A DNA stretch of 64,000 nt, from assembly GCA_022703585.1 (NCBI GenBank), contig JAKLDJ010000002.1, forward strand, positions 219,413 to 283,412, read 5' to 3'. Below, one piece after another: positions 3,468-23,645 of this stretch (position 1 is its first letter; the number at the start of each line of letters is the position of its first letter). The DNA comes from Candidatus Omnitrophota bacterium (GTDB taxonomy: Bacteria > Omnitrophota > Gorgyraeia > Zapsychrales > JAKLDJ01). The notes below the pieces were generated by a model, which saw only the letters and a program-made list of their open reading frames with translations, did not search any database and was not told where the DNA came from. The position numbers were made by a program, and so were the translations under genes.

Positions 3468-4591
3468 CTCTTTGTTGAATTTTTTCTGCTTTTTGTTTTA
3501 TTGACCTTCAAACCGCGGTAGCGGTAGTAAGCAGCACAAGCACCCTCTGATGATACCATTGTAGCACCAAGAGGATGTTCGGGTGTGCATTTTTTACCGA
3601 AGGCCGCACATTCGTAAGGTTTCTTGACGCCCTGTAAGATCAAACCGCTGATGCATTCAGGGGACTCTTGCGTTTTAATATCCCCCAGGGCAAAACGCCT
3701 TTCGGCATCAAACAGACGGTAGGGCTCGCGTAAACCTAAGCCGCTTTTCACAATCTCCCCGATGCCGCGCCACTTACGCGGGACAATTTCGAAGATTTCT
3801 TTAATCAGTTTCTGGGCCTGGCTGTTTCCCTCCTCCTTGACCGAGCGTGTATATTGATTTTCAACAACCCAGCGCCCTTCCTCGAGTTGCTTAATGCACA
3901 TAAGAATTCCCTGCAGAATATCCAGCGGCTCAAAACCCGTGACCACAACCGGCACACGGTATTTCTGTGCGATCGGATAATATTCGGTAGTGCCCATGAC
4001 CGTGCAGACATGCCCGGCCGCCAAAAATCCCTGCACGCGGTTATTTGGTGAAGAAAGAATTGCCTCCATAGCCGGCGGTACCAAGACATGCGAGACCAGA
4101 ATTGAGAAATTCTTGACACCTTCCTTGTGCGCTTGATAAACCGCCATGGCATTAGCCGGAGCTGTGGTTTCAAAGCCAACGGCAAAAAAGACAACCTGTT
4201 TTGCAGGATTGTCCTTAGCGATCTTTAAAGCATCCAAAGGCGAATAGACAATGCGAACATCTCCGCCAGAGGCCTTAACTGACAAAAGGTCTTTTTTGCT
4301 TCCCGGAACACGCAACATATCTCCGAAAGAACAGAAAATAGCCTCAGATCGTGAAGCAATTTCAATAGCTTTGTCAATAAGCTCCAGGGAAGTCACGCAA
4401 ACAGGGCATCCCGGCCCGTGCACCAACGTAATATCTTCAGGCAAAAGCTCATCAATGCCGAATTTGACAATCGCGTGCGTCTGGCCCCCGCAGATTTCCA
4501 TAATAGTCCACGGCCTTGTAATGATCCGGCGGATTTCCCGGCTCAAGCCTTCAGCTGCCTCTTTAGCGCGGTATTCGTCAAGATATTTCAT
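3464..4591 (-). CDS. hypD: Hydrogenase maturation protein HypD.
   Basis: The 375-aa ORF starts [11 protein letters not shown] and contains the GPGCPVCV and CGG/CPVC motifs typical of HypD. Confidence 0.9.
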
Positions 4592-4601
4592 AATGAATAG
4601 C

Positions 4602-4880
4602 CTAGGTTTTACCCTTGCGATTTTCCCTGGCCTGCTTGATATCGAGCTCTTTAAGCTCTTCCATTTCTTCCAAATACTTAAATACCTGCTTAGCTTCCTT
4701 TTCGTCTACCTTGCTTATAGCAAAGCCCACATGGACCATAACATAGTCACCGACTCTTATCTCTGGCACGTAGGCTAAAGACACTTCCTTAATAATGCCG
4801 TTAAATTCGACCTTGCCTTTACGGGAAAAGAGTTCACCGCCGGTCATGCTGATTACTTTTCCGGGAACAGCTAAGCACAT
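4602..4880 (-). CDS. hypC: Hydrogenase assembly chaperone HypC/HupF.
   Basis: The 92-aa protein begins MCLAVPGKV, the conserved HypC N-terminal Cys motif. Confidence 0.9.
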
Positions 4881-4884
4881 AGAC

Positions 4885-7221
4885 TTAACCTTTCAACTTA
4901 AATGAAGCCACAACCGCTTGGCCCAAGGAAATTCCCCCGTCATTTGGTGGTATCCTATTGTGCCAGAATACCTTTAGTCCCTCTTGTTTCATTCTGAAAA
5001 TAGCCTTTTCGGTCAAATATTTATTCTGAAAACAGCCTCCGCTAAGGCAAATACGGGCAGCCTTTGTCCTTTTCGCCATGCCAACAATTACTTCAGCCAG
5101 TGTATTGTGAAACTTTGCTGATATCTCCCCTGCCGGAAGCCCGCTTTTAAGGTCGCTCAGGACCTCTTTAACTATCGGCTCCCAGTCAACAACCAGGATT
5201 CCATCAAGATTTTTGTCGTTCTTGGAAACACAAAAGATATTGAAATTATAGCACTTATCAACATTCTTGCCCTCTAAAACATATTCCAATGCCATCGCAG
5301 CCTGGCCCTCAAAACTGGTTTTGTGATACAGGCCAACGATAGAGCTTACAGCGTCAAACAAACGGCCGACACTGGAAGTCACCGGTGTGTTTAAATCTTT
5401 AAGTATCATTTTGGCAATAGTCTCAAGTTCTTTCTGGGAGAAAGCTCGAACGCAAAGCAGCTCTTTCATCTCAAAAACTTTCTCGCCGAAGATCTCAAAA
5501 AGAACACCCAGAGCCGCTCGCCGCGGTTCTTTAATCGCTGCTTCATTCCCGGGCAACTTAAATGTTCGAAAGTATCCGACCCTTTTAAAGTCAGACAGCG
5601 TGGACATTAGGAACTCCCCGCCCCAAATTGTCCCATCTAATCCAAACCCGGTTCCGTCCCAGGCAACGCCCAGGACTTCATCGGCAATCCCGTTCTCACT
5701 CATGCACGAAACAATATGGGCATGGTGATGCTGTACGGCTATTGTCGAGGCTTTCTGGCCCTTAGTGTATTTGCTTGAAAGATATTCCGGATGCATGTCA
5801 CAAGCAATACCCTTGATGCGGGCATCATAAAGCGCAGGAAGGTCTTTAACGGATTGTCCAAACGCCAACAACGACTGTTTTGTCTCCAAGTCTCCTAAAT
5901 GTTGGCTGACAACAACGCTATCACCCAGGCTTAAGGCTACGGTATTTTTTAAATGCGCGCCCGCGGCTAAAATACCCGAGGCAGAATTCGAAACAGAAAC
6001 CGGCGCAGGCGCAAACCCGCGGGCGCGCCGCAAAACCATCATTCTCCCCGCCGTCAACCGCACCACCGAATCGTCCATATGTCGCGCAATCGGGCGATTA
6101 TGCACTAAAAATAAATCAGCAATACCTTTAAGCCTTTTAAGAGCTTCTTTTTCGTCAATACAGATCGGTTCATCAGAAAGATTGCCGCTGGTAGCGACAA
6201 CCGGAAAATTTAATTTTCTCATCAGCATATGATGAAGCGGCGTGTAGGCAAGCATCGCTCCAAGATAAGGATTTTCGGGCGCTACCGAAGGCGCCAGGCC
6301 CGGTTTTTGCCTAGAAACCTTGTTCAAAAGAACTATTGGCGCTTCGGACGAATTTAAGAACTCCCCCTCTTGAGGAGTAACGTGACAATGCTCCCTGATC
6401 ACTCGAAGACTTGGAAATAATAATGCTAAAGGTTTTTCTTCGCGATGTTTCCGCTGGCGCAGCCGCACGATTGCCTGATTATTACGAGCATCCACTAAAA
6501 GTTGAAAACCGCCCAAACCTTTAAGAGCAACAATCTTTCCCGCGCGGAGAGCCGCAACGGTTTTTACAAACGCCTCATGGTACGCAGCAACCCTTTTCCC
6601 TTCCCTGTTCCATAACTCAAGATGGGGCCCGCAGTCAGGGCAAGCATTAGGCTGGGCATGAAAACGGCGGCTTGACGGGTCTTTATATTCCGCCAGGCAG
6701 CGTTTGCACATTTTAAATTCTTTCATAGTGGTATTTGCCCGGTCATAGGGAATCGCTGTAATAATAGAAAATCGCGGACCACAATTGGTGCAGTTCGTAA
6801 ACGGGTAGGAATAACGGCGATTACCGGGGTCAATAATCTCATTAAGGCAATCCGGACAAGTGGCAATATCGGGTAAAATAGCCGTCGTCTTTGTCTTTAA
6901 GTCTTCACTTTCGCGGATCGTGAAATCTTTATAGTAGACAGGATTTAAAAAAGAAGTTTCGACATCCTGGATAGAGGCGTGAGCAGGTTTTTCTTTTTTA
7001 AGGCGGCTTAAGAAATCAGCCAGAGTTTCTTTCTTCCCCTCTACCTCGATGATAACGCCTTGAGCGGAATTGCTGACCCATCCTTTTAAGCCCAGGTCAT
7101 GCGCCAACCGGTAAACAAAAGGGCGAAAGCCAACCCCCTGCACTGCGCCGCGGATTAAAATGAGCAGGCGAGAAGTCTTTTCTTTTGAGGAAGAAGAAGC
7201 TGACGAAGAATATCCGGACAT
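4885..7221 (-). CDS. hypF: Carbamoyltransferase HypF (acylphosphatase, zinc-finger, YrdC and Kae1-like domains).
   Basis: The 778-aa ORF has an N-terminal acylphosphatase motif (VQGVGFRPFVYRLA), two CxxC..CxxC zinc fingers and a C-terminal Kae1/YgjD-like domain. Confidence 0.9.
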   Translation of the reverse strand: MSGYSSSASSSSKEKTSRLLILIRGAVQGVGFRPFVYRLAHDLGLKGWVSNSAQGVIIEVEGKKETLADFLSRLKKEKPAHASIQDVETSFLNPVYYKDFTIRESEDLKTKTTAILPDIATCPDCLNEIIDPGNRRYSYPFTNCTNCGPRFSIITAIPYDRANTTMKEFKMCKRCLAEYKDPSSRRFHAQPNACPDCGPHLELWNREGKRVAAYHEAFVKTVAALRAGKIVALKGLGGFQLLVDARNNQAIVRLRQRKHREEKPLALLFPSLRVIREHCHVTPQEGEFLNSSEAPIVLLNKVSRQKPGLAPSVAPENPYLGAMLAYTPLHHMLMRKLNFPVVATSGNLSDEPICIDEKEALKRLKGIADLFLVHNRPIARHMDDSVVRLTAGRMMVLRRARGFAPAPVSVSNSASGILAAGAHLKNTVALSLGDSVVVSQHLGDLETKQSLLAFGQSVKDLPALYDARIKGIACDMHPEYLSSKYTKGQKASTIAVQHHHAHIVSCMSENGIADEVLGVAWDGTGFGLDGTIWGGEFLMSTLSDFKRVGYFRTFKLPGNEAAIKEPRRAALGVLFEIFGEKVFEMKELLCVRAFSQKELETIAKMILKDLNTPVTSSVGRLFDAVSSIVGLYHKTSFEGQAAMALEYVLEGKNVDKCYNFNIFCVSKNDKNLDGILVVDWEPIVKEVLSDLKSGLPAGEISAKFHNTLAEVIVGMAKRTKAARICLSGGCFQNKYLTEKAIFRMKQEGLKVFWHNRIPPNDGGISLGQAVVASFKLKG

Positions 7222-7307: not shown

Positions 7308-8306
7308 TTATAAGATCTTCCCAAAACTCTGTAAAGCCTTCATATAATTGGCACGCTCAAAGGCCTCGGGATTCTCGCAAGATTTCTGGCTTATGCTCCC
7401 TTTCATCTGCTTGACCGATTCGTATTCGTTTTCTTGCATCCAGAGTTCCATGCCTTTAAGAATCTCGCCCGCGTGCCCGATACCGTTTTTCAAGAGCGTC
7501 GCACACAGCATCGTCGCATCAGCGCCGGCCATGAGCATCTTTAAAACATCCTCAGAGGTATGAATACCGCTGGTGGCGGCCAGGCTTGCCTTGACTTCTC
7601 CGTAGAGAATAGCAATCCAGCGCAAAGGTAGACGCATCTTGTTTGAAGTGCTTAAAAACAGATTCGGCACAACTGACAATGTTTCTAGGTCAATATCCGG
7701 CTGATAAAAACGGTTGAACAAAACCAAACCGTCCGCCCCGGCCGCATCCAGGCGCTTGGCCATGTTGGCTAACGCGCTAAAAAAAGGACTTATCTTAACC
7801 GCCACGGGTATCGTGACATTGGCCTTGACCGAACGAAGGATATCCAGATAACTCTGCTCAATCTTCTCTCCGGAAACATCGGGATCGGTAGCAACAAAAT
7901 AAATATTTAACTCTAGGGCGTCAGCCCCAGCCTCCTGGATGCGCTTGGCGTATTTAACCCACCCGCCGCCGGAGTGGCCGTTAAGACTGCCGATAACAGG
8001 GATTTTAACAGCCTTCTTGGCTTTCTCGATATGATTCAGATATTCCTCGGGACCTAAAATAAAATCCGAAGGCTCGGGAAAGTAGGTCAATGACTCGGCA
8101 AAACTTTCCGTTCCGTGAGTCATATGATGGTCTAATTCGTAAACCTCGCGGGTAATCTGTTCTTCGAAGAGAGAATGATGGACGACAGCCGCGATACCGG
8201 CATCTTCCATGCGCTTGATATTATCAATATTCTCCGAGAGCGGCGATGCCGAAGCCACGAGCGGATTTTTTAATTTCAACCCCATATAATTCGTCGAAAG
8301 ATCCAT
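7308..8306 (-). CDS. Dihydroorotate dehydrogenase family flavoprotein (class-1 DHOD/PreA-like TIM barrel, without a ferredoxin domain). The ORF extends to 8408; the start is more likely the internal ATG at 8306.
   Basis: Motifs [15 protein letters not shown] and PVIGSLNG are typical of the class-1 DHOD/dihydropyrimidine dehydrogenase fold. It sits immediately downstream of PFOR. Confidence 0.7.
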
Positions 8307-8323
8307 CAGGCACCTGTCTTGTA

Positions 8324-11300
8324 TTAGGTTTTTTGTTCCGTAGCCGGATTTGCTGCCGGTGTTGCCCCTGCTCCGGGCATGGCCGCTAGTCCAGAGTAAA
8401 TCCGCCAACGCTCGTTAACGTCTTTCTGGGCTAATTCCAGCAAGCGTTTGGCCTCCTCGGGCTTACTCTTGGTCAACATCTTAAAACGGTTTTCGGTATA
8501 AATATAATCCGCTAAAGGCATTTTGGGCTCGGAAGAATCAAGCTGAAGAGGATTTTTTCCCTCACGGGCTAACATCGGATTATAGCGAAACAGCGGCCAA
8601 TAGCCTGACTGGACCGCGGCCTTTTGATTTTGCATCCCTGTGGTCATATTAATACCGTGAGCGATACAATGTGAATAGGCAATAATCAACGATGGCCCCT
8701 CGTATGCCTCGGCCTCGAGAAAAGAGCGAAGCGTATGTTCGTCCCTGGCACCCATGGCCACGGCAGCAACATAAACATGGCCATAGGTCATGGCGATACG
8801 GGCCAAATCTTTCTTGGGTAACGGCTTTCCGCCTGCGGCAAATTTAGCCACCGCGGAGCGCGAGGTGGATTTAGACATCTGCCCGCCGGTATTGGAATAA
8901 ACCTCCGTATCCAAAACCAGGATATTGACGTTGCGGTCAGAAGCAATAACATGATCCAGGCCGCCAAAACCGATGTCATAGGCCCAGCCGTCACCACCGA
9001 TAATCCAAACACTCTTTTTAACCAGCATATCGGCAACGCTTAAAAGCATTTTGGCGTCCGCCGATTTAATGTCTTTCAACTTTTCCTTAAGAATTTTAAC
9101 ACGCTCTCTTTGCTCAAAGATCCCGGCCTCGGTTTTCTGGTCCGCGCTTAAGAGGGCGCTGACGAGCTCGCCACCCAGCTGAGATTCCATTTTCTTGAGT
9201 AACTCACCGGCAAACTCTTTTTGCTTGTCGATCGACAGCCGGAAACCAAAACCAAACTCCGCGCAGTCTTCAAATAGAGAATTCGACCACGCCGGCCCAC
9301 GGCCTTCGCAGTTTTTGGTGTACGGCGTCGTCGGCAAATTCCCGCCGTAAATCGAAGAACAGCCCGTAGCGTTCGCGACAACCGCGCGGTCGCCGAAAAG
9401 CTGGCTCATGAGTTTTAAGTACGGTGTTTCCCCGCAACCGGCGCAGGCCCCGGAAAATTCAAAAAGCGGCCTTAAAACCTGCATCTGCCGAATGGCGCCC
9501 GCCTTGACAAGATTTCGGTCCAAATCGGGAATATTGAAAAAGAATTTCCAGTTCTTCGATTCCTCTTCGCGTAAAGGCGGCTGTGGCCGCATGTTGATAG
9601 CTTTTAGTTTTGTGTCGGATTTATTCTTCGCAGGACAGGTATCAACGCACAACGCGCAACCGGTACAGTCTTCCGGTGAAACCTGAATAGTAAACTTCTT
9701 TCCCGCCCATTCCTTATCTTTGGCATCGACGGATTTAAACGTCGCAGGCGCTCCGGTCAAATACTTCGGGTCATACGCCTTGCCCCGGATAACCGCATGC
9801 GGACAGACTAAGCTACATTTGCCGCACTGGATACAAACCTTTTCGTCCCAAACCGGTATCTCGAGAGCGATATTACGCTTTTCCCATTGAGCGGTACCCG
9901 TCGGAAACGTCCCATCGGCCGGCATGCTTGAGACAGCCAGATCATCCCCGCGGCCGGCAATGATCTCGCCGGTAACCTTCTGGACAAACTCCGGCGCTTC
10001 TTTAACCACCGGCGGCTTTAACTCGATAGTGCTTGTGACCTTGGCCGGGACTTTGACCTCATGAAGATTAGCCAGGGTCTGGTCAACGGCATTAAAATTC
10101 ATTTTGACAATTTCGTCGCCTTTCTTACCGTAGGTTTTCTTAATCGACTTCTTTATCGCCTCGATAGCCTCATCTTTGGGCAGAATTCCGGAAATGGCAA
10201 AAAAACAGGTTTGCATAATCGTATTCATCCTGCCGCCCATGCCGGTATCTTTAGCGACTTTGTAACCGTCAATAACAAAAAATTTGAGCTTCTTTTTGAT
10301 GATCTGTTCTTGAGCAACGCGGGGCAATTTGTCCCAAACTTCATCTGCTCCAAAGGGGCTATTCAAAAGAAAAGTGCCTTTTTCGACAATGTCTTTTAAG
10401 ATGTCGTACTTCTCAAGAAAAACAAACAAGTGACATCCGATAAAGTTCGCCCGGTTGATCAGATACGTTGAGTTGATCGGCTTTGGCCCGAAACGCAAAT
10501 GCGAAACCGTGATCGAGCCGGACTTCTTCGAATCATAAACAAAGTACCCTTGTGCATAATTGGGGGTATCCTCACCGATGATCTTGATGGAGTTTTTATT
10601 AGCGCTCACCGTTCCGTCCGAGCCCAACCCGTAAAAAAGGCAGCGGACAACATCATCGGGTTCCGTGCTAAAACCGGGATCATAATCAAGGCTGGTGTGG
10701 CTTACGTCGTCATTGATACCGACGGTAAAATGATTCTTTGGTTTGGCCTTAGCCATTTCATCATACACGCCCTTGACCATCGCCGGAGTAAACTCTTTCG
10801 AGGAAAGTCCGTAACGACCGCCAATCACTTTAGGTAATTTCTTAAATCCGCCGGCCTCGCCCCCTTCAACCAGGGCATTAACAACATCCAAATAGAGCGG
10901 CTCGCCAATGCTACCGGGCTCTTTAGTGCGGTCTAAAACGGCAAGTGTCTTAACCGTCTTGGGCAAAGCGGCAATAAAATGTTTAATAGAAAAAGGCCGG
11001 TAGAGCCGCACCTTAAGCAGGCCGACCTTTTGATTCTTCTTGATCAGATAGTCAACCGTTTCCTGAGCGGCTCCGGCACCCGAACCCATCATTACAATCA
11101 CAGACTCGGCATCCGGGGCTCCGTAGTAATCAAATAACTTGTACGCGCGCCCGGTTAAGCCGGCAAACTTATCCATGGCCTTTTGGACGATCTCGGGACA
11201 GGCATCATAATAAGGATTGATCGTTTCGCGTGCCTGGAAATAAACATCAGGATTTTGTGCCGTACCGCGCATGACGGGGCGATCCGGAGTTAGGGCGCGA

Positions 11301-11914
11301 GCGCGATGCGCCGCCACCAAATCATCGTTGATCATAAAACGGATATCTTCGTCGTTGAGTTGTTCAATCTTTAAGGTCTCGTGAGAAGTCCTAAAGCCGT
11401 CAAAGAAATGCAGGAAAGGAACACGAGCCTCTAATGTCGCTGCCTGGGAAATAAGGGCAAAATCCATAACCTCCTGGACGGAGTTTGAGGATAGCAGGGC
11501 AAAACCCGTGCCTCGAACTGCCATTACATCGGCATGGTCACCAAAGATCGATAACGCATGTGCTGCTAAAGAGCGCGCCGCGATATGAAAAACCGTCGAA
11601 GTAAGCTCCCCGGCAATTTTATACATGTTGGGGATCATCAAAAGAAGCCCCTGGGATGCGGTAAAGGTGGTTGTCATAGCCCCGGTTTGAAGCGCGCCGT
11701 GAACCGCGCCCGCGGCGCCGGCCTCGCTTTGCATCTCTTGAACCAGAGGAGTCGTTCCCCAGATATTCTTTTTATCCTGGGCTGCCCATTCATCCGCCCA
11801 TTCACCCATATTAGAAGAAGGCGTAATCGGATAAATCGCAATGACTTCGTTGACCCTAAATGCTACATAAGCCGCTGCCTCATTACCATCAAGCGTTACT
11901 TTCTTTCTGTCCAT
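8324..11914 (-). CDS. nifJ: Pyruvate:ferredoxin (flavodoxin) oxidoreductase, single-polypeptide PFOR.
   Basis: The 1196-aa ORF has a TPP domain, two [4Fe-4S] CxxCxxCxxxCP motifs and an N-terminal [34 protein letters not shown], all hallmarks of NifJ/Por. Confidence 0.95.
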
Positions 11915-12259: not shown

Positions 12260-12823
12260 ATGGTCGATCATAAACATACTTGTCTGTTCTATCGCACAAA
12301 AGACGAACTTATCGAAATCGCCGTCCCCTTCCTGCAATCCGGCCTTGCCAACCACGAATTTTGTCTTTGGACACTCCCGTCTTTGCTATCGACAGACGAA
12401 GCCGCGTCAGCGCTAAGCCAAGCTGTCGGCAGTCTTGAGCCGTACCTGGATAAAGGACAGCTGGAAATCAGCACGGCGATAGACTACTATTTGAAGTCCA
12501 GGACATTTACAGCCTATGAGATGATTGAACACTGGAGGGAAAAGGAAAAAGAGGTTGCTGCCCGCGGCTTTGCAGGAATTAGCGCCATAGGCGATGGCGG
12601 CTGGGGTGCCGAGGAGTATTGGATTAATCTTCTATTTTATGAACATGATATCGAAAGCATCATTGACAATAGCAAAATGAAAGCCATCTGCACCTATCAG
12701 CTTAACCAGTTTGATATTACCAAAATCAACGCCATCGGACGCACCCACCACGCTGCGCTGGCCAAAAGTCAGGACCAGTGGAATATCTACAGCCCGAAAG
12801 ACTTCAAAGACTTCGCAATGTAA
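12260..12823 (+). CDS. Stand-alone MEDS-domain protein (methanogen/methylotroph DcmR sensory domain).
   Basis: The N-terminal HTCLFYRTKDELIEIAVPFLQSGL matches the HxCxFY signature of MEDS domains. The protein is 187 aa with no output domain. Confidence 0.65.
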   Translation: MVDHKHTCLFYRTKDELIEIAVPFLQSGLANHEFCLWTLPSLLSTDEAASALSQAVGSLEPYLDKGQLEISTAIDYYLKSRTFTAYEMIEHWREKEKEVAARGFAGISAIGDGGWGAEEYWINLLFYEHDIESIIDNSKMKAICTYQLNQFDITKINAIGRTHHAALAKSQDQWNIYSPKDFKDFAM

Positions 12824-12906
12824 TTGTAGCAGTCATCAAAAAAGGAATAACCTCAAACTCACGTGGGGCCTATTCCCAGATTATTATCCGGTGTCTGCGG
12901 TTTGCC

Positions 12907-13149
12907 CTACTCCACGTCAAACGATACCAATTCCACCCGCCAGCCCGGGAACATAACGACTTCGATTTTAGCGCCTTCCAGCATCGTTCCTTTGGCAAGG
13001 ATAGAAAAAGTTTCCTTAAACGAGCCTTCCATCACGCCCGTGTACTGCCCGACCTTGACCACCACCTTGGTAACTTTTTTAGCCCCTTCTTTCTTGGCGT
13101 GCTCGGTAATGCCGTCAATAATAGGCTGAATCATGTGGGTTTCATGCAT
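12907..13149 (-). CDS. hypA: HypA-like hydrogenase nickel-incorporation protein. It keeps the N-terminal Ni-binding domain only; the C-terminal zinc finger is missing.
   Basis: MHETHMIQPIIDGITEHAKKEGAKKVTKVVVKVGQYTGVMEGSFKETFSILAKGTMLEGAKIEV aligns with HypA residues 1-70 (MHE motif), but the ORF stops at 80 aa with no CxxC pairs. It overlaps the protease gene by 8 nt. Confidence 0.7.
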   Translation of the reverse strand: MHETHMIQPIIDGITEHAKKEGAKKVTKVVVKVGQYTGVMEGSFKETFSILAKGTMLEGAKIEVVMFPGWRVELVSFDVE

Positions 13150-13635: not shown

Positions 13636-14256
13636 CTATTTCGTTGTCAGGGTTGTTTTTCTGCGGCACGGGGCACAAAGAATTTTGACTCTGTCGGAAC
13701 GGCCGTAATCTTTAAGGGCGGAAACAAGATTATCATCGACAATACCCAGGTTTTTAAGCCGCGACAGGTACAAGGTGGGACTGGAATAGGTCAGCTCTCC
13801 CAATCTTTCAGAAATCCATTTTAAATGGTCCTTGCAGGCAATCGGATCCCCACAGACTTCGCATAACTGCAGTTCTTTTTCAATGGTCTCAAAGGATTCC
13901 TTTTTGCGGTCAAAGAAAGAAAGTTCCCACTTGTTTGAAGTTTTAATCCCCTCGTGATTAGAAATGCACGCCGCCTCGCACTGGCCGCAAAAGATGCAGA
14001 TATCCGTATAGTGAATCATGATACGTTTGGCGCTTCCGGCGCGATCGGATAAATCCTTGTGGCTAATCGCCCCAACGGGACAAACCTCCTGGCAGGCCAA
14101 GCACCCGACGCACTTATCCTGATTAAACTCATACTGGCCCCTAAAGTTCGGATGAGGAACATGCGGCTCTTTCGGGAACTTAGCGGTATAGGGCCCTTGA
14201 AAAAGCGCTTTAACCGCCTCAATAATTTCTCTTATTTTAGGCAACTTTATTCTCAT
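13636..14256 (-). CDS. 2x[4Fe-4S] ferredoxin-like subunit of the hydrogenase (MbhN/EchF/NuoI-like).
   Basis: It has CVGCLACQEVCP and CIFCGQCEAAC motifs and is the last structural gene of the Mbh operon. Confidence 0.8.
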   Translation of the reverse strand: MRIKLPKIREIIEAVKALFQGPYTAKFPKEPHVPHPNFRGQYEFNQDKCVGCLACQEVCPVGAISHKDLSDRAGSAKRIMIHYTDICIFCGQCEAACISNHEGIKTSNKWELSFFDRKKESFETIEKELQLCEVCGDPIACKDHLKWISERLGELTYSSPTLYLSRLKNLGIVDDNLVSALKDYGRSDRVKILCAPCRRKTTLTTK

Positions 14257-14588
14257 GCTTCCCCTTCTCTATCTTCGGCATATTGATCGACAACGCTTCC
14301 CTGCCAAAGCTTTACCCCGGCCCGGTGCGCTCCGCGTGACAAGGCATGCGCTAAAACCGGAGCGGTCAAAAGCAAAAATGACATGCACAAAAGCGACTTC
14401 ATCCCCGCGGCGGTAAATCCCATCATCAGGAAAACCCCAAATAGGATACTGCAGGTGCCGGCCGTCACGCATTTGGTAGCGGCCTGCAATCGGTTATAGA
14501 TATCCGGCAGGCGGACAAGGCCCAGACAGCCCAACAGATCAAAGAAAAGACCAATGCCGATAAAAATCAAACCTAATGTACTATTCAT
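14253..14588 (-). CDS. Mrp antiporter subunit G-like membrane protein. The ORF extends to 14657; the likely start MNSTLG is at 14588.
   Basis: A small three-TM protein following the MrpE and MrpF homologs. It overlaps mrpF by 8 nt. Confidence 0.7.
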   Translation of the reverse strand: MNSTLGLIFIGIGLFFDLLGCLGLVRLPDIYNRLQAATKCVTAGTCSILFGVFLMMGFTAAGMKSLLCMSFLLLTAPVLAHALSRGAHRAGVKLWQGSVVDQYAEDREGEA

Positions 14589-14949
14589 CAAACCCTTTTC
14601 CTTCCAGATATTTTGAAAGCGCCAAAATGCTGATAAAACCCTGCAGCGCCCAGGCAATGCCGATATCGATATACCACATCCGTCCCGTGGAAATAGTTAA
14701 AATCGCGCACAAGCCCACGATCATAATTCCTAAAATATCCACCGCCACAATCCTGTCCGCTCCCGTGGGGCCCTTCCAGACCCGGTAAAGGCACAGCAGG
14801 CACGCCAGGATAATGATATACATGGCCCTGCCCATAAATTCTAAATGCGGTAAGTCCGGATAAAAGAGAAACGGCATCGGCCGCACAATAATTAAAGTAA
14901 CCACAGCCGTTAGCGCTACCGCACCGATAAACCATCTGACGATTTTCAT
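14581..14949 (-). CDS. Mrp antiporter subunit F-like (MnhF family).
   Basis: The 122-aa hydrophobic protein carries a DRIVAVD motif. Confidence 0.7.
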   Translation of the reverse strand: MKIVRWFIGAVALTAVVTLIIVRPMPFLFYPDLPHLEFMGRAMYIIILACLLCLYRVWKGPTGADRIVAVDILGIMIVGLCAILTISTGRMWYIDIGIAWALQGFISILALSKYLEGKGFDE

Positions 14950-14958
14950 AAAATATCC

Positions 14959-15456
14959 CTAGTCAAAAATCTTGGTTAATATTCTTTCAAAGCGCCCCAC
15001 CACCAATTTGGTCGCCGCTTCCATATCTTGAGTCTTCACATCGATCCAATGCACATAAAGAATACCTGCCTCACGGTCAATATCCACGACCATCGTTCCA
15101 GGGGTGAGCGTTATCGAACAGCACAAAAATGTCAAAGCCACGTCTGACTTTAGAGTCGTTTTAACCTTAACAATGCCGGGATTAATCGGCAGCCGGGGGT
15201 GTAAAACCCGGATGGCCACGTCAATGTTGGTTTTGACTAATTCCCAGAAAAATATAGGCACATAGCAAAATATAAAATACCACCAGCGGTGAGGATGGCT
15301 AAATCCCGCAGCGCCTTTGGTAAACAGATCCGCCACGATAAAATCAACGAACGCCGCCACCAAGACGCCCACGGTAATATGCTGCCAGTCCGGCGGCCAG
15401 TTTAGGACGCACCAGGTAATAAGACCGACAATGAATAAAACGATTCTTTTTGCCAT
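14959..15456 (-). CDS. Mrp antiporter subunit E-like (MnhE family).
   Basis: The 165-aa ORF has the SITLTPGT motif characteristic of MrpE. Confidence 0.75.
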   Translation of the reverse strand: MAKRIVLFIVGLITWCVLNWPPDWQHITVGVLVAAFVDFIVADLFTKGAAGFSHPHRWWYFIFCYVPIFFWELVKTNIDVAIRVLHPRLPINPGIVKVKTTLKSDVALTFLCCSITLTPGTMVVDIDREAGILYVHWIDVKTQDMEAATKLVVGRFERILTKIFD

Positions 15457-15459
15457 AGT

Positions 15460-16962
15460 CTAAATATGCTGTAAAACCGCAATAAGGTAATCCGCGCTTT
15501 CCGTCATGACGCCAACGGCCTGATTTAAGAAAACGTTTTGGATTCCCGGGATAAGTAAAAGCCCGCCGACCGAGGTTATTAAAGCCAAGGTGATCAAAGA
15601 GAATTTCATCAAAAATGGAACTTCAATAATCTTCTCTAACCCCACCCGTACATCACCCCAAAATGTACATTTCATAGCCTTTAAGAAAGCAGCCAGAGTT
15701 AAGACGCTGGCCACAATTGCCCAAACGGCAGGCCACAACTGCCCCGCCTCGACTGCCGCAAGAATAATAATCAATTTGCTCCAGAAACCTGCAAAAGGCG
15801 GAACCCCCGAAATCGACATGGTGCCGATAATGCTTGTCATGCCGGTGACGGGCATTTTTTTCATCAGCCCTCCCAATTTTTTCATGTCGCGCGTTCCGGT
15901 TGCATATTCAACGGCACCGGCACCTAAAAATAAAAGCGATTTGAATACCGAGTGGTTAAAAAGATGGAACAGGCTTCCCAGAATACTTAACGGCGTTCCG
16001 ATGCCAAAGCCTAAAATAATATAACCCATCTGGCTTATGGATGAATACGCATAAAGCCTTTTTAAATCCCATTGGCCGATCGCTAGAAACCCGCCCACCA
16101 CCATCGAGATGCAGCCTAAAACCATCAGGATCGAGGCTATCGCCGGGGTTACACCGATGACATTACCGAATATTCGAAATATGGTATAAATCCCCAGCGA
16201 TTTAATGAGAACCCCGGACAGCATCGCCGATATAGGTGCCGGAGCGCTGGGGTGCGCATCGGGAAGCCAGGCATGAAAAGGCACCAGGGCTGATTTTAGG
16301 CCAAAACCCATAACAAATAAAACACTGACCAAAAGAATGATATTGCTCGAACCCTTTTGTGCCAATACCGCGGCAATATCAGCCATATTTAAAGTGGAGG
16401 TAAAGCCGTACAGCAGGGCAATGCCCATCAGAACAAATAATGACCCCAAAGTGCTCATGAGCGCATATTTAAAAGCCGCCTCCAACTCATGGCGCTCGAC
16501 GCCAAAGGCAACCAAGGCAAAACTGGCAATGGCGGCGATTTCTAGAAACACGAATAAATTAAAAATATCCCCGGTAACAATAACCCCGTTCATCCCGCCC
16601 AACATCAGAAGAAACAGAGTAAAGAATTTCCATTTAGAAGTAAAATGCTCCATGTATTTAACCGAATAAATCGCAATCATGAGCGCGACCAGATTAACCG
16701 TTACTAACATGAACGCCGTTAGTCCGTCTAAGACCATAGCGATACCGATAGGCGGTTTCCAGGCCCCCACACTATAAACAAGAATGTGGTATTCATTAAC
16801 GAGCTTAAGCGCAAAAAGCGCCGCAATAAAAAGGCCTGCCGTAGATAAAACTCCTAGAAAGTCCGCAAGCCATTTAAGCTTTCGCCCCCCTATGGAAATC
16901 ATAAAAGCGCCGGCTAGCGGCACAATAACGAAAATAGGAATAATGTTGACGGCGGTCGTCAT
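15460..16962 (-). CDS. NuoM/MrpD-like antiporter-type membrane subunit of the hydrogenase.
   Basis: The 500-aa polytopic protein has the conserved proton-pumping-subunit segment SQMGYIILGFGIGT...FHLFNHSVFKSLLFL. Confidence 0.85.
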   Translation of the reverse strand: MTTAVNIIPIFVIVPLAGAFMISIGGRKLKWLADFLGVLSTAGLFIAALFALKLVNEYHILVYSVGAWKPPIGIAMVLDGLTAFMLVTVNLVALMIAIYSVKYMEHFTSKWKFFTLFLLMLGGMNGVIVTGDIFNLFVFLEIAAIASFALVAFGVERHELEAAFKYALMSTLGSLFVLMGIALLYGFTSTLNMADIAAVLAQKGSSNIILLVSVLFVMGFGLKSALVPFHAWLPDAHPSAPAPISAMLSGVLIKSLGIYTIFRIFGNVIGVTPAIASILMVLGCISMVVGGFLAIGQWDLKRLYAYSSISQMGYIILGFGIGTPLSILGSLFHLFNHSVFKSLLFLGAGAVEYATGTRDMKKLGGLMKKMPVTGMTSIIGTMSISGVPPFAGFWSKLIIILAAVEAGQLWPAVWAIVASVLTLAAFLKAMKCTFWGDVRVGLEKIIEVPFLMKFSLITLALITSVGGLLLIPGIQNVFLNQAVGVMTESADYLIAVLQHI

Positions 16963-17297
16963 CCTCTCAAGTCCCTTATCTTGGTGATATCGAACGTTCC
17001 GTATTTCTCGAAAATCCTCATGGCGAGCGCGATCAAAATAACGGTCGTGGCCAAGCCGATAACGATTGAGGTTAAAACAACCGCCTGCGGAAGCGCATCC
17101 ACCATATTGGTAATTTCGGCGTTAGGCGAATAGATCGGCGCACGGCCTTCTATGCGGTAGGCGATCAGGATAAAAAACAGGTTAACCGCGTACTCGGCAA
17201 TAATGACGCCAATGATAATCTTGATAATATTGCGCTTACGCAAAATCCCGTAAAGCCCTACCGAGAAAAACGAAAGGCATAATAGATAAATAGCCAT
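16959..17297 (-). CDS. MrpC/NuoK-like small membrane subunit.
   Basis: A 112-aa protein with three TM helices and gene order consistent with Mrp subunit C. Confidence 0.7.
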   Translation of the reverse strand: MAIYLLCLSFFSVGLYGILRKRNIIKIIIGVIIAEYAVNLFFILIAYRIEGRAPIYSPNAEITNMVDALPQAVVLTSIVIGLATTVILIALAMRIFEKYGTFDITKIRDLRG

Positions 17298-17318
17298 GAT
17301 TTTATTTTCCTGTTTCTC

Positions 17319-17343
17319 CGGGGCGGCCCTCCGGGCCGCCCCG
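17319..17343. repeat. Intra-operonic GC-rich perfect hairpin (cggggcggccc tcc gggccgccccg) between the mrpB-like and mrpC-like genes.
   Basis: An 11-bp stem, sharing its stem sequence with the hairpin at 12015-12040. It sits about 20 nt upstream of the mrpC-like ATG at 17297. Confidence 0.6.
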
Positions 17344-17350
17344 ACAATCC

Positions 17351-17812
17351 TTATTCCTTCTTGTTTTTTTCCGGCTCGTATTTCAATAGAACAAACGCCA
17401 CAAAAATAGCAAAAATCCCCGCGCCGACTTTAAGACTGATAGCCAGATTCAAAAGCGGTATTGTCCCGGCGCTAAACAGATGAAACGGCTCACCCTTGGC
17501 AATGAAATTTAAAAAGAAATATCCTCCGGTAAAACCTAAAAGAGCAATGCTTAATAAAATCAATGCCCCCAAATTTTCAAAAAATGACGTCACCGCTTTA
17601 GGAAGTTTGCTTAAAGCCGTATCCTTCCCGTACGCCAGCATGAGATTAATAAAAGACAAGGCAATAATGACCCCGCCGGCAAATCCTCCCCCCGGCGAAA
17701 CATGACCGTGAGAAAGAATATAAATCCCGTAAAGAAGGATAAACCCGACCGTTAATCTCGCCGTAGTCCTGACGATAACAGACATCCCTGTTTGGCGCTC
17801 TTTACTGCTCAT
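17351..17812 (-). CDS. MrpB (MnhB-domain) membrane protein, MbhF-like.
   Basis: LSHGHVSPGGGFAGG is the MnhB family signature. Confidence 0.75.
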   Translation of the reverse strand: MSSKERQTGMSVIVRTTARLTVGFILLYGIYILSHGHVSPGGGFAGGVIIALSFINLMLAYGKDTALSKLPKAVTSFFENLGALILLSIALLGFTGGYFFLNFIAKGEPFHLFSAGTIPLLNLAISLKVGAGIFAIFVAFVLLKYEPEKNKKE

Positions 17813-18353
17813 CGTTTTCCTCGATCACCTGGTTTTCTTTCTTTCTTCCGGTGCGCCGAACAATAGACATGACACCGACAACCGCCGTAAATAAAACCGT
17901 GGCCTCGCAGAGCGTATCAAAAGCCCTGTAATCAAGGATGATCGAAGCCACCACATTGGTCGCGCCGGTCTGCAGAAGGCCTTCCTTAATATACGTCGCA
18001 GATACCCTCATTAGAGGAGACCCAAACACCGGTAGATCTTTTAGGCATTTTGCCGCCACGGTCAAAAATGTCGCCACAAACGACACGACGACTATCGTAT
18101 TAAAAAACCAGCGGCCTGAAATTGAAAACGGCAAATCGGTTTTTAGCGTTGCCCGGATGAGAATAATCAGCGCTAGCGTTTCAACCACCAGCTGGGTAAT
18201 AGCCACATCCGGGGCTTTAAGAATAATAAATGTCATCGAAAGGCCCAAGCCCACCGCGCCCAAGGCCACAACCGACGACAAAAGATCCTTGGCCTCCAGC
18301 GCAATCACCGCGCCGATGATCATGAATATTAACAGTATGTATAATTCGACCAT
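17802..18353 (-). CDS. MrpA-C-terminal/MrpB-like membrane protein (fused MbhD/MbhE-like).
   Basis: It carries the APDVAITQ and ILDYRAFDTLCE motifs (DUF4040/MnhB domain). Confidence 0.7.
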   Translation of the reverse strand: MVELYILLIFMIIGAVIALEAKDLLSSVVALGAVGLGLSMTFIILKAPDVAITQLVVETLALIILIRATLKTDLPFSISGRWFFNTIVVVSFVATFLTVAAKCLKDLPVFGSPLMRVSATYIKEGLLQTGATNVVASIILDYRAFDTLCEATVLFTAVVGVMSIVRRTGRKKENQVIEENDEQ

Positions 18354-18365
18354 GTTCTTGAGGAG

Positions 18366-20015
18366 TTATTTAAACACAACATAAAAAATAGCCAGCATAC
18401 CCAAAAGACACCAGACCAGATACGTAGGAAGGACACCGTTATGCAAAAACCGCAAGGTCGCGGTAAAACCCGACGCTATCTTCCCTCCCACCTCATAAAT
18501 ATCAAATAGTTTCTTTCCGGCTAACCGATAAATAAATTTTAAAATCCCGACGTCCTGGATGGTATTATAAAATTCAACTCCCGATAACCGCATATCGGCA
18601 TTCTTTTCTAAGAACTCGCCGCCGACAAAAGACTCTGTCCGGCGCGTTTTTGCCATTCGGCCTAGAAAATAAATAATAGCGCCCAAGACGATTGCCAAGA
18701 GAATTAATGTCGTAGCAATTCCAGAATTCCACACGCCGTCAAATGCTACGCCCTCGTTTAAGCTGGGGAAGATAAACATCGTTAAAGGCACCGCATAAGC
18801 AAAAACACCGAAGATAATGCAGAAAACCGCTAGTAATACCGCCGGAAAAAGCATGGTAATGCCGACTTCTTGTTTTTTGTTACCGGCAATAGCCCTTTCG
18901 TTCGAAGGCTGACCCAAAAATATCGCGTGAACCAGTTTCATGAAACTCGCCAATGTCAAAGCACTGCCGAACATCGCCGCCATGAGCCAGACGATCCACC
19001 ATCCGCCGCCATTTTTTCCGAGCTCGATAATCCCCTGATAGATCATCCATTTCGAAGCAAACCCGTTAAAAGGCGGAACGCCCGAGATCGCCAGCGACCC
19101 GATTAAAAATGTTATAAACGTAATCGGCATGACTTTGACAAGCCCGCCCAGCTTCTCCAGGTCCGTTGTCCCGGCCTTTTTTTCCACAGCGCCGCCCGAC
19201 AAAAACAAGCAGGATTTGTAAATCGCATGGTTAAGCATATGGAATATCCCGCCGGCAATACCGAGTGGATTTCCCGTGCCGATCCCTAAAACCATATAAC
19301 CGACCTGGCTGACCGCATGGTAGCCTAAAAGCCGTTTGAGATCGTGTTGTACCAGCGCCATCATAACCGCCGCCACGATCGTAAAGCTTCCTACTCCCAT
19401 CAAAAACATATTCATGGCATCGTTCATCTGAAATATATCCAAAGAAATCCGTCCCAGGAAATAAATCCCCAGGAGCTTATCCAGCGACGCCGGTAAAAAC
19501 GCGGTCACGGGTGTCGGCGCATCCTCGGCCATATCCGGTATCCAGGTGTGAAACGGCATAGCCCCGGCTTTGGCAAATGCACCGATGGCCAATAAAAGAT
19601 ACGCGAGAATAGCAAACTTATTATCGAGCGTAATCGCCAATTCATCCATTTGAAAAGAACCGTTGATAAGCCAAATAAGGGCAACCCCCAAGAGCATGAA
19701 CGCATCTGTTCCTCCGACGATAATCAAAGATTTCCTGGCGGTAGCCGAGGTGCGTTCTTTATTTCCGAATTCAATCAAAAGATAGAGTAAAAACCCTAAA
19801 AATCCCCAAAAGACCACGAAGACAACAAGATTATTGGCAAAGATAGCGCCCAAAGAAGAAATAAGCGTGAGCGCTATATAAAGGTAGTAACGCGCTAATC
19901 CCTTTTGGCCGCGCATGAAGCCGAAAGAATAAACAGCGATTAACACCGTAAAGAACGCGGCAAATGTCCCCACGAAAGCGGAAAAATTGTCAACCTTAAA
20001 CAATTCGCCTAACAT
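18366..20015 (-). CDS. NuoL/MrpA/HyfB-like antiporter-type membrane subunit.
   Basis: The 549-aa polytopic protein has the conserved segment SQVGYMVLGIGTGNPLGIAGGIFHMLNHAIYKSCLF. Confidence 0.85.
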   Translation of the reverse strand: MLGELFKVDNFSAFVGTFAAFFTVLIAVYSFGFMRGQKGLARYYLYIALTLISSLGAIFANNLVVFVVFWGFLGFLLYLLIEFGNKERTSATARKSLIIVGGTDAFMLLGVALIWLINGSFQMDELAITLDNKFAILAYLLLAIGAFAKAGAMPFHTWIPDMAEDAPTPVTAFLPASLDKLLGIYFLGRISLDIFQMNDAMNMFLMGVGSFTIVAAVMMALVQHDLKRLLGYHAVSQVGYMVLGIGTGNPLGIAGGIFHMLNHAIYKSCLFLSGGAVEKKAGTTDLEKLGGLVKVMPITFITFLIGSLAISGVPPFNGFASKWMIYQGIIELGKNGGGWWIVWLMAAMFGSALTLASFMKLVHAIFLGQPSNERAIAGNKKQEVGITMLFPAVLLAVFCIIFGVFAYAVPLTMFIFPSLNEGVAFDGVWNSGIATTLILLAIVLGAIIYFLGRMAKTRRTESFVGGEFLEKNADMRLSGVEFYNTIQDVGILKFIYRLAGKKLFDIYEVGGKIASGFTATLRFLHNGVLPTYLVWCLLGMLAIFYVVFK

Positions 20016-21193
20016 CGGCCTAATTTCTCCCGGATTTTCTCGGTTTTTTCCTGTGACAGCTTGACTAAGCCTTCGCCATTATAAAGCATCTTTCCCTTGG
20101 TATCGCGCACGGCCATTCGCTCGGTACAGCAATAGCACGGATCAATCGCCGCTAATATAATAGCCGCATCAGAAATCGTTTCTCCCACCACCGTCGCTTT
20201 ATACGTCGGCATATTCATAAACGTAGGCGCCCGGATCTTGTGGCGCGCGGGCCGGTTAGTGCCATCGCTTAAGACATAATGAAAACTCTCTCCCCGCGGC
20301 GCCTCGTGCGTGCCGATCCCTTCTCCCGGCGGGATATCCGTTATCTGCATATCAATTTTTCCCCCGGGAAGATTTTTAAGACACTGCCTTAAAATTCTTA
20401 TGGATTCAAAAGTTTCCAGGATCCTTAAAACCACTTTATCAAATACGTCGCCGTTTTTTAGGACGATCATGTCCCATTCGACCTTATCATAGGCCTCATA
20501 TGGAGAATCTTTACGGACATCAATGGCAATGCCCGAAGAACGCGCCGTAGGGCCTAAGGCGCAATAATCAATGGCTTTTTCTTTAGTTAAAACTCCTACA
20601 TTCTTAGTCCTTGCCTGCAAAACAGGATCATCCATGACGGCTTTCTTGATCATGGTAAGCGTAGGAACAATTGAATCAAGTTTCTTTAATACAACCGGTA
20701 TATCTTCCGCTTTAATATCCCTGCGCACGCCGCCGGGCTTAAACATGGCGTAATTGTTGCGGTTGCCGGAGAGAATTTCCATTACATCTAAAATTTCTTC
20801 CCTTAGTTTCCACGCCCACATAAAAACCGTATTGTATCCCAAGAAATGGCCGGCCAAGCCCAGCCATAAAAGATGCGAATGAACCCTCTCCCCTTCAGCA
20901 ATAATAGTGCGAATGTACTGGGCGCGTAGCGGCACCTCGGCCTGGATAATATCCTCCACCGCCCTGGTGTAGGCAAACGGGTGGCTAGTTGAACAAATAC
21001 CGCAAATCCTTTCCACCGCAAACGTCGACTGGTCAAAATTCTTCATCTCGGAAATCTTTTCGATACCGCGATGGTTATAGCCGATTTGAACATCGATGTC
21101 CACAACCCTCTCGCCTTCAACCATAAGGCTAAAAAATTCAGGCTCTTCTTGTAAAGGATGATACGGGCCTATGGGAACAATTGTCTTTGCCAT
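20009..21193 (-). CDS. Group-4 [NiFe]-hydrogenase large (catalytic) subunit, NuoD-like.
   Basis: The N-terminal ligand motif ERICGICSTSH and the C-terminal DPCYCCTER are both present. About 35 aa follow the second motif as a protease-cleaved C-terminal extension. Confidence 0.9.
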   Translation of the reverse strand: MAKTIVPIGPYHPLQEEPEFFSLMVEGERVVDIDVQIGYNHRGIEKISEMKNFDQSTFAVERICGICSTSHPFAYTRAVEDIIQAEVPLRAQYIRTIIAEGERVHSHLLWLGLAGHFLGYNTVFMWAWKLREEILDVMEILSGNRNNYAMFKPGGVRRDIKAEDIPVVLKKLDSIVPTLTMIKKAVMDDPVLQARTKNVGVLTKEKAIDYCALGPTARSSGIAIDVRKDSPYEAYDKVEWDMIVLKNGDVFDKVVLRILETFESIRILRQCLKNLPGGKIDMQITDIPPGEGIGTHEAPRGESFHYVLSDGTNRPARHKIRAPTFMNMPTYKATVVGETISDAAIILAAIDPCYCCTERMAVRDTKGKMLYNGEGLVKLSQEKTEKIREKLGRC

Positions 21194-21667
21194 TTATACG
21201 CCTCTGTCTCTGATTGCGTTTTTATCCCACTCTTTGTAATCCCGCCTCAAGGGATAAACCCCCTCCGGCCAGTCCTCAGGCAAAAGTAACCTGCGCATGT
21301 CAGGATGATTCTTGAATGTAATACCCAAGACTTCAGTTGTTTCGCGTTCAATCCAGTTAGCGCCTTCAAAATAAGGGGTGAGCGAATCGATTTCCAAATT
21401 CGACTTGTCGAGTTTAATTCTGAAGGTAAATACCGCATCGATTTTATCAAATGTAAAATGATACAGCATTTCCATATGGTCCCGCACATCCACGCCCGAG
21501 GCGGTGTTAAACCGCGCCCCAAGCTCCCTAAAAACATGAAGGACAACACGCACCAGCGCTTCTTTTTTTATTTCGATGTAAATGCGTTTGGGCGACTTCT
21601 CAAAGACTCCGACAATATCTTGTTTAAATCGGTCGGTCAAATCTTTTAAAATTTCAAGTGGGGTCAT
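21194..21667 (-). CDS. NuoC-like hydrogenase subunit (30 kDa family).
   Basis: A 157-aa ORF sitting between the small and large subunits, as in Mbh/Ech/Hyc operons. Confidence 0.75.
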   Translation of the reverse strand: MTPLEILKDLTDRFKQDIVGVFEKSPKRIYIEIKKEALVRVVLHVFRELGARFNTASGVDVRDHMEMLYHFTFDKIDAVFTFRIKLDKSNLEIDSLTPYFEGANWIERETTEVLGITFKNHPDMRRLLLPEDWPEGVYPLRRDYKEWDKNAIRDRGV

Positions 21668-21684
21668 AGCGTATCAGCCTTTTT

Positions 21685-22149
21685 TTATTTCTTGCCTTCC
21701 GAAGTTGCCTTTATCTTTTCGATCAGCTTCACAATACCGGCAATCATGGCCTCCGGCCTGGGAGGGCATCCGGGAACATAAACATCGACAGGAATAACCT
21801 TATCTAAAGGAAGCGGGCAATTATAACTGTTAATATACATCCCCCGCGATAAGGAACATTCTCCCATGGCCACCACAAAACCGGGCTTAGGCATTTGTTC
21901 ATAAATTCTTTTAATGCGCGGGATACATTTACGAGTCACTGAGCCCGTTACTAATAAAACATCGGCATGTTTAATGCTGCCGACCAGCACCATCCCGAAT
22001 CTTTCAATATCATGACGGGGTGTCAGACAATCAATGATCTCAATGTCGCAGTTATTACAGCTTCCCGTCGACATGTGAAATACCCACAGCGATTTTAATA
22101 ATGCCTTTTGCTTTAGATTCATTTTATAAACCCTTAAAAGCCAGCACAA
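21685..22149 (-). CDS. Group-4 hydrogenase small subunit, NuoB-like with a proximal [4Fe-4S]. The start could be the ATG at 22149 or at 22122.
   Basis: It has the cysteine motifs GSCNNCDIE, GECS and GCPP of NuoB/HycG-type small subunits. Confidence 0.85.
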   Translation of the reverse strand: MCWLLRVYKMNLKQKALLKSLWVFHMSTGSCNNCDIEIIDCLTPRHDIERFGMVLVGSIKHADVLLVTGSVTRKCIPRIKRIYEQMPKPGFVVAMGECSLSRGMYINSYNCPLPLDKVIPVDVYVPGCPPRPEAMIAGIVKLIEKIKATSEGKK

Positions 22150-23059: not shown

Positions 23060-23622
23060 TGCCAGTGCGTCGAGTGCACGATTAAATTATCCCCGACCAG
23101 AAAAGTATTTTCATCCAACTCGATATCGGCGCTTTTTAAGCTTAGGGCCCCATGCGGACACGATGCAATACACAGCGGTTCATCTTTTTGATTCCTTCTA
23201 TCCAAACAAAAATCACACGTATGGACCAAAAGTGGAAGATTCTCGGGATAGATCGTTCCGTACGGACAGGCATGCGAACAGGATTTGCAGCTGACGCAGC
23301 GCATATTGTGCCTGATTAATAACTTTCCCTTATCTTTCTGCTGCTCCAACGCTTCACAAGGACAGGCGTTGACACAATGCGGCTCTTCGCAGCGACGGCA
23401 GACAAGATAATAGGTCGCCAGCTCGGCAACCGAGACAATGCCGTTATTTTGGGGGTGATAAAAATAGCTGCATTTGATCACGCATTCCTCACACTGGCCC
23501 GTTGAGCAGACATCCAGGTCGATGAAAAGGCGCTTATCGGAACCTTTTTGAGGCTCAGGATTCAGTTTGCTCTGATGCAGCTGTTCCGCACTATTTTTAA
23601 AATTATTTGCTTCGTTTCCCAT
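23044..23622 (-). CDS. Poly-[4Fe-4S] ferredoxin-type electron-transfer subunit (HycB/CooF-like).
   Basis: The 192-aa ORF contains four Cys clusters: CSTGQCEECVIKC, CRRCEEPHCVNACP, CVSCKSCSHACP and CDFCLDR...CIASCP. Confidence 0.75.
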   Translation of the reverse strand: MGNEANNFKNSAEQLHQSKLNPEPQKGSDKRLFIDLDVCSTGQCEECVIKCSYFYHPQNNGIVSVAELATYYLVCRRCEEPHCVNACPCEALEQQKDKGKLLIRHNMRCVSCKSCSHACPYGTIYPENLPLLVHTCDFCLDRRNQKDEPLCIASCPHGALSLKSADIELDENTFLVGDNLIVHSTHWQWKKA

Positions 23623-23645
23623 AATCCGATTTACCTAATCATTTT

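Follow-up and report, generated by a model that had tools for sequence, protein, structure and literature searches.

The window, i.e. the whole 64-kb stretch of Omnitrophota DNA that was analysed, carries an operon for a membrane-bound [NiFe] hydrogenase, followed on the same strand by the hycI protease gene and by a short hypA gene (Table 1). The hypA product is MHETHMIQPIIDGITEHAKKEGAKKVTKVVVKVGQYTGVMEGSFKETFSILAKGTMLEGAKIEVVMFPGWRVELVSFDVE* (80 residues, beginning MHETHMIQ and ending SFDVE). It matches the Pfam HypA family (PF01155) over profile positions 1–68 of 112, with E=2.6e-15 and 56.8 bits against a cut-off of 28.9, and its sequence is matched to residues 1–65 of Thermococcus kodakarensis HypA (3A43) and to residues 1–55 of Helicobacter pylori HypA. 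The N-terminus contains the MHE nickel motif (MHETH). These matches bear out the first-pass annotation of the gene, made from the sequence alone, as a HypA homologue with an MHE N-terminus. The protein stays short of the TIGR00100 equivalog cut-off (61.3 vs 88.1 bits), as it does of the cut-offs of all remaining HypA equivalog models of NCBIfam. The zinc site formed by two CxxC pairs is missing, and the protein has no cysteines at all.

Six-frame translation of the 83-nt spacer between the hypA stop codon and the MEDS gene showed no CxxC pairs, in agreement with the first-pass annotation, and neither an intrinsic terminator nor significant RNA structure (z=0.36) was found in this spacer. Searches of the 64-kb window by regular expression and tblastn revealed no second hypA and no hypB; an ‘MHE’ at 29256–29264 was rejected, as it lies in an ORF of seven codons.

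Table 1. Positions of the hydrogenase maturation genes and their neighbours in the window, and of full-length hypA genes at three related loci
Feature	Location	Strand	Basis or remark
hypF, hypC, hypD, hypE, no hypB	2406–7221	(-)	Pfam scan
DHO_dh-like gene	7308–8408	(-)	between hypA and hypFCDE
Single-chain pyruvate:ferredoxin oxidoreductase (PFOR), 1196 aa	8324–11914	(-)	between hypA and hypFCDE
MEDS-domain gene, convergent with hypA	12260–12823	(+)	between hypA and hypFCDE
Spacer, hypA stop to convergent MEDS gene	12824–12906 (83 nt)		no hidden zinc-finger coding sequence
Zinc-less hypA	12907–13149	(-)	80 aa, MHETH N-terminus, no Cys, C-terminal strand GWRVELVSFDVE kept
hycI/hypA overlap, 8 nt ATGCATGA	13142–13149	(-)	hycI TGA stop inside first hypA codons
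HycI-type hydrogenase maturation endopeptidase, 153 aa	13142–13603	(-)	Pfam HycI E=1.9e-17; TIGR00072 E=2.4e-31
Mbh/Mrp-type membrane-bound [NiFe] hydrogenase operon, 13 genes	13636–23059	(-)	ORFs; Pfam of identical locus L001
Hydrogenase large subunit, 394 aa	20009–21193	(-)	Pfam NiFeSe_Hases, Complex1_49kDa; motif scan
Full-length zinc HypA, last gene of Ech-like operon	L037 10968–11303	(-)	
Full-length zinc HypA, last gene of Ech-like operon	L055 18186–18527	(-)	
Full-length zinc HypA, last gene of Ech-like operon	L051 2178–2519	(-)	

The hydrogenase operon and its surroundings

The Mbh-type [NiFe] hydrogenase is the presumed client of the short HypA. Its large subunit carries both NiFe-ligand motifs, RICGICSTSH (residue 62) and DPCYCCTER (residue 351), the latter followed by a 35-residue C-terminal extension. 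In other [NiFe] hydrogenases the large-subunit extension is cleaved by maturation endopeptidases (PMC12134894). The sequence GGAG is present 10–13 nt upstream of the hypA start. An identical 8-nt overlap between hycI and hypA is found in 48 related loci, and an SD-like motif is upstream of the gene in 75 of 85; as judged from sequence, the overlap suggests translational coupling.

Gene order is highly uniform in the relatives. The large subunit, the ferredoxin subunit (Fer4), HycI and short hypA are found in this order in 81 of 85 loci, and HycI is upstream of short hypA in 82. A complete hypF-C-D-E set lies directly downstream on the same strand in 38 loci, and at least hypF does so in about nine more. 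In the window, the MEDS, PFOR and DHO_dh-like genes separate hypA from the hypFCDE cluster. The first-pass annotation described hypA as the last gene of the hydrogenase operon; this is correct for the present genome, but it is a local property, since three genes intervene here and in the 38 related loci hypFCDE follows directly. The intervening block looks like a lineage-specific insertion or rearrangement, and it sets the ferredoxin-reducing PFOR beside a hydrogenase that is presumably ferredoxin-dependent.

Several other genes in these neighbourhoods should be pointed out. Immediately 5′ of the Mbh genes, and on the same strand, are three Cys-rich ORFs (23044–25494, (-)); the first encodes 192 aa and has a Fer4_11 Pfam match in L001, and the other two encode 273 aa and 344 aa. 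They may belong to the Mbh operon. Beyond them are a response regulator and a PAS/histidine kinase (25497–28203), and at the other end a radical SAM ORF of 298 aa (1467–2363) comes after hypE. In loci L002 and L003 a 433-aa protein (10280–11581) is encoded directly 3′ of short hypA. It has both HupF_HypC and Radical_SAM Pfam matches and is apparently a HypC–radical SAM fusion; a Rex-like regulator and then a radical SAM/BATS protein come next.

HypF also varies in size. The HypF of the window (4885–7221) is full length, with 778 aa. Where hypF directly follows short hypA in Omnitrophota, the protein is approximately 353 aa in 43 of 46 loci (e.g. L004 10251–11312, L006, L007, L012 and L020). 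These short proteins correspond to residues 417–772 of the window's HypF, i.e. to the Kae1-like domain alone, and are devoid of the acylphosphatase domain, the two zinc fingers and the YrdC domain. A short HypF, a zinc-less HypA and a missing hypB together suggest a minimised Hyp set in the Omnitrophota lineage.

Zinc ribbon and predicted fold

In recent accounts HypA is a two-domain protein whose zinc site is conserved and stabilizes the structure (PMC13202556, PMC12134894). A 2026 study describes this site as essential if HypA is to interact with its partners (PMC13202556), and a work on H. pylori reports that hydrogenase activity depends on the residues of the zinc site and that mutations in them abolish HypA function (PMC5557546). 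When 15 short and 16 full-length HypAs were aligned with MAFFT, the short proteins showed a single gap, of 33–37 columns, which lies exactly over the CxxC...CxxC region. Residues 69–80 (GWRVELVSFDVE) are matched to the C-terminal strand that full-length HypA has beyond the zinc site; the consensus is G-x-R/E-V/L-x-V-x-S-F-D/E-V-E in the short form vs S-G-x-E-L-x-I-x-x-I-E-V-E in the full-length form.

The AlphaFold2 model of the short HypA, built on 39 family members, has a pLDDT of 95.7 and a pTM of 0.82. Its secondary structure consists of helices at residues 4–20 and 41–52 and strands at 26–34, 61–67 and 72–79, of which the last two form a hairpin. With this predicted model as query, Foldseek returned HypA structures only, determined by crystallography or NMR. 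Of these, 3a43_B from T. kodakarensis ranks first (TMq 0.89, rmsd 1.9 Å, 113 alignment columns), and the H. pylori structures 2KDX and 6G81 match with TMq 0.81–0.83. The 113 columns indicate that the alignment to 3a43_B spans the site of the target's zinc domain. In the short protein a four-residue turn (FPGW) takes the place of the zinc ribbon.

In canonical HypA the last β-hairpin carries the zinc ribbon as an insert within its turn. On the alignment and the model, the short HypA is the product of an internal excision of this ribbon of approximately 35 residues, and not of a C-terminal truncation. With the last 12 residues placed on the C-terminal strand, the ribbon would have been cut from the hairpin turn, leaving a predicted nickel-domain fold (helix-strand-helix-strand-strand) that is complete. 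The first-pass annotation had the 80-aa ORF terminating before the zinc site. The absence of the CxxC pairs stands; a simple stop at that point does not, as residues 69–80 are the strand that normally comes after the site.

The short protein thus shares with the HypA/HybF family (PF01155) the N-terminal MHE, the nickel-domain fold made from the N-terminal ∼68 residues and the C-terminal strand, and the encoding of the gene together with hydrogenase and hyp genes. It differs from the family in lacking the two-CxxC ribbon (∼33–37 alignment columns, with the FPGW turn instead), in having an additional invariant His5, in having no linked hypB, and in its score relative to the TIGR00100 cut-off.

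Conservation, paralogues and other zinc-less lineages

Homologues of the short form are numerous in related organisms. A search of 5.8 billion proteins gave 206 matches; among the best 120 clusters, at least 110 are exactly 80 aa in length, with 63–100% identity to the short HypA, and almost all of those whose source is named are labelled Omnitrophota or Omnitrophica. Examination of related genomes, proposed in the first-pass annotation as a check, was also productive: a scan of GTDB species genomes located 80 loci, mostly in Omnitrophota and including six complete chromosomes, and every copy is 80–84 aa long. The carriers of the short form are uncultured organisms throughout.

Fourteen positions are invariant in 39 diverse members (M1, H2, E3, H5, P9, G13, H17, E21, G22, G34, F48, S76, F77 and D78), and MHE is kept in nearly all of the 80+ genomic copies. 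From 78 coding sequences, the median pN is 0.196 vs a pS of 0.83, with synonymous sites saturated; dN/dS is ∼0.13 in the 18 least-diverged pairs and 0.09 across all finite pairs. By these sequence comparisons the short HypA is conserved and under purifying selection. Of the two possibilities raised in the first-pass annotation, a pseudogene or a minimal HypA variant, the second is supported by the conservation, the selection and the retained fold.

A few members depart from this pattern. P0123, P0126 and P0128 (80–81 aa) are close to the Omnitrophota short HypA and have no MHE; their N-termini are MYKVD, MSDTA and MSDHL, and the rest of the fold sequence is retained, including the C-terminal SFD. 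They could be non-nickel-binding derivatives or have mis-called starts. Because such members exist, nickel binding is perhaps not universal in the short-HypA family.

Some relatives have two HypA proteins. Loci L037, L051 and L055 have the short form on the Mbh operon, and a second hydrogenase operon, of the Ech-like group-4 type, encodes a zinc HypA of 111–113 aa. The Ech-like large subunit (359 aa) lacks a C-terminal extension, ending in DPCISCAER, and its operon contains no gene for a protease. Since the full-length zinc HypA is on the second hydrogenase operon, the short form is a dedicated, hydrogenase-specific paralogue. The presence of two paralogues in one genome, on separate hydrogenase operons, is similar to the situation of HybF and HypA in Escherichia coli. 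E. coli HybF retains the zinc site; unlike the E. coli pair, the Omnitrophota paralogues differ in domain architecture and not in sequence alone. HypA paralogues are known to confer hydrogenase specificity (2025 review, PMC12134894).

Zinc-less HypA is not confined to Omnitrophota. When a profile was run against 1.84 billion representatives, 1735 matches were obtained. Among the best 150 of these, 55 are of 76–90 aa and most are Cys-poor with the same architecture; these Cys-poor short forms are far more divergent than the Omnitrophota clade. When the first 66 residues are compared, 16 of 51 short forms have a full-length protein as nearest neighbour (e.g. P0180 and P0173, at 58% identity). 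This interleaving of short and full-length forms suggests that the zinc module was lost repeatedly, although 66 columns give an indication and not a phylogeny.

One of the other lineages is the P0155 clade, consisting of 80-aa proteins assigned to Spirochaetota by their NCBI names. Its AlphaFold2 model has the same fold (pLDDT 94.9; TMq 0.92 to 3a43_B), and the gene opens a canonical operon of hypA-hypB-hypF-hypC-hypD-hypE. This Spirochaetota-type hyp operon is found in L086 (10001–15545) and L087, where HypB is a 214-aa protein with a cobW match, and it runs divergently from the genes of a bidirectional hydrogenase of the Hox type, whose subunits include HoxH and NuoE/F-like proteins. Further contexts of zinc-less hypA are HycI-Rex-hypA and hypA-hypF-hypC.

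The databases already name these short proteins HypA; the zinc-less architecture, as seen in their sequences, is apparently undescribed. A full-text literature search found no published description of a zinc-less HypA, with coverage that was incomplete, such that an earlier mention is possible; ‘HypA-like’ matches in the literature were rejected, as they concern an isoprene reductase operon. P0218 and P0238 are Cys-free proteins of 81–84 aa that some sources annotate as ‘Zn finger protein HypA/HybF involved in hydrogenase expression’. The zinc-finger label is carried over from the family name and is contradicted by the sequences themselves.

Nickel delivery and the question of HypB

The short HypA is quite likely a functional, zinc-less HypA paralogue from which the zinc ribbon has been excised and which is dedicated to the upstream Mbh-type [NiFe] hydrogenase. 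Ni(II) would be bound at the N-terminus by the Met1 amine, His2 and Glu3, probably with the assistance of His5, to form an MHExH site. The protein would then dock on the immature large subunit and donate Ni once the Fe(CN)2CO group has been installed, after which the co-translated HycI would remove the 35-residue C-terminal extension. The order of nickel insertion by HypA followed by C-terminal cleavage is that described in the 2025 review (PMC12134894).

His5 is invariant in the Omnitrophota clade (39 members). It is present in 13 of 26 short vs 9 of 71 full-length representatives (Fisher p=0.0003, a statistic that ignores phylogeny). Position 5 belongs to the opening turn of helix 1 and is three residues past His2; an MHExH chelate is therefore plausible. 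In T. kodakarensis, HypA in complex with its HypB employs His98, a residue close to the zinc domain. Hypothetically, His5 makes up for the contribution that comes from the zinc-domain side in canonical HypA. The need for the zinc site in H. pylori (PMC5557546), together with its role in partner interaction (PMC13202556), means that a zinc-less protein might work differently.

This raises the question of whether a HypB takes part. The probe used was the E. coli HypB sequence. Its validity is shown by a score of 624 bits against the HypB equivalog model and by its matches to the HypB proteins of L086 and L087 (E=1e-55). With this probe, no HypB was found in the 64-kb window or in the 1.29 Mb flanking 84 Omnitrophota short-hypA loci. 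The first-pass annotation had pointed to the absence of HypB from the hypFCDE cluster; the Pfam scan confirms it, and the probe extends it to the window. None of the Omnitrophota loci examined has a hypB linked to short hypA, and a full-length Omnitrophota HypA (P0308) has no adjoining hypB either. One Omnitrophota KO profile (Seymour et al., 2023) has, among the entries listed, K04651 and K04653–K04656 and not K04652. On the basis of the window and the flanking regions, the evidence leans towards HypB being absent from Omnitrophota short-hypA genomes.

A known system close to the present one is that of T. kodakarensis, in which HypA serves an Mbh-type hydrogenase and which is not known to have a GTPase-type HypB. 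Its HypA in complex with the Mrp/MinD-type ATPase HypB (5AUN, 5AUP) is a structural match at TMq 0.74. Unlike that system, the window has no Mrp/MinD-type ATPase gene by a KGGxGK[ST] scan, and T. kodakarensis HypA keeps its zinc domain. A MinD-like ATPase was also considered as a conserved partner and was rejected: MinD-like genes are present at only 6 of 84 related loci, and those of L004, the sole one of the six with Pfam calls, carry ferredoxin domains (MinD plus ferredoxin) and are 5–6 kb distant.

In a canonical HypA–HypB cycle, only the zinc module would be missing, and a GTPase HypB would be encoded elsewhere in the genome. This is possible but rather doubtful. The source genome is seen over 64 kb only, and the zinc-less HypA of Spirochaetota heads a complete hypA-hypB-hypF-C-D-E operon, which shows that loss of the zinc site is compatible with a HypB partner. 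However, the validated probe was negative in the window and in the 1.29 Mb around the 84 Omnitrophota loci, the usual order in the relatives is hypA-hypF-C-D-E with no slot for hypB, the full-length Omnitrophota HypA is likewise without a nearby hypB, and K04652 is missing among the listed entries of the one KO profile.

It is improbable that the protein delivers no nickel and acts instead as a docking or holding factor by which the large subunit stays open to HypC or to the HycI protease. Its tight coupling to hycI through the 8-nt overlap would fit such a role, as would the loss of MHE in a few family members and the absence of both the zinc domain and a linked HypB. Yet none of the 39 aligned members deviates at M1, H2 or E3, and nearly all 80+ genomic copies keep these residues, which is hard to explain without metal binding, and the enrichment of His5 beside the site points to a metal site that was strengthened and not abandoned.

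A recently truncated pseudogene, as entertained in the first-pass annotation, or a gene in which a frameshift introduced by sequencing or assembly conceals a zinc finger, is what 80 aa vs ∼113 aa, the absence of Cys and a score under the TIGR00100 cut-off at first resemble, but it is highly improbable and ruled out by the comparative data, given the identical architecture in at least 110 clusters (63–100% identity) and 80 species genomes from independent assemblies, a dN/dS of ∼0.1, the fixed operon position, no CxxC in any downstream frame, a C-terminal strand still in frame and a confident fold prediction.

With the short HypA taken as a nickel-delivering paralogue, a broader scheme can be tentatively put forward, which as a whole has less than an even chance of being right: maturation of the Omnitrophota Mbh hydrogenase would use a zinc-less HypA with a self-sufficient MHExH nickel site, co-translated with HycI, and no HypB NTPase. 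This stripped-down nickel branch may be accompanied in most relatives by the HypF that is reduced to its Kae1-like domain.

Annotation pipelines could gain from these findings, as the TIGR00100 equivalog model misses zinc-less HypAs. The 80-residue Cys-free protein offers a model for nickel binding and large-subunit docking, and two questions become testable: the purpose of the zinc domain and the need for HypB. A zinc site that has been described as universal is perhaps dispensable. If the nickel domain can by itself be a complete HypA, as a large class that is naturally zinc-less and under selection would show, the role of the zinc module would narrow to an accessory one, e.g. in regulation, in the sensing of pH or nickel, or in some of the partner contacts. 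If the HypB-free and zinc-free branch proves to be true, neither the zinc domain nor nucleotide-driven nickel loading would be intrinsic to [NiFe] hydrogenase maturation.
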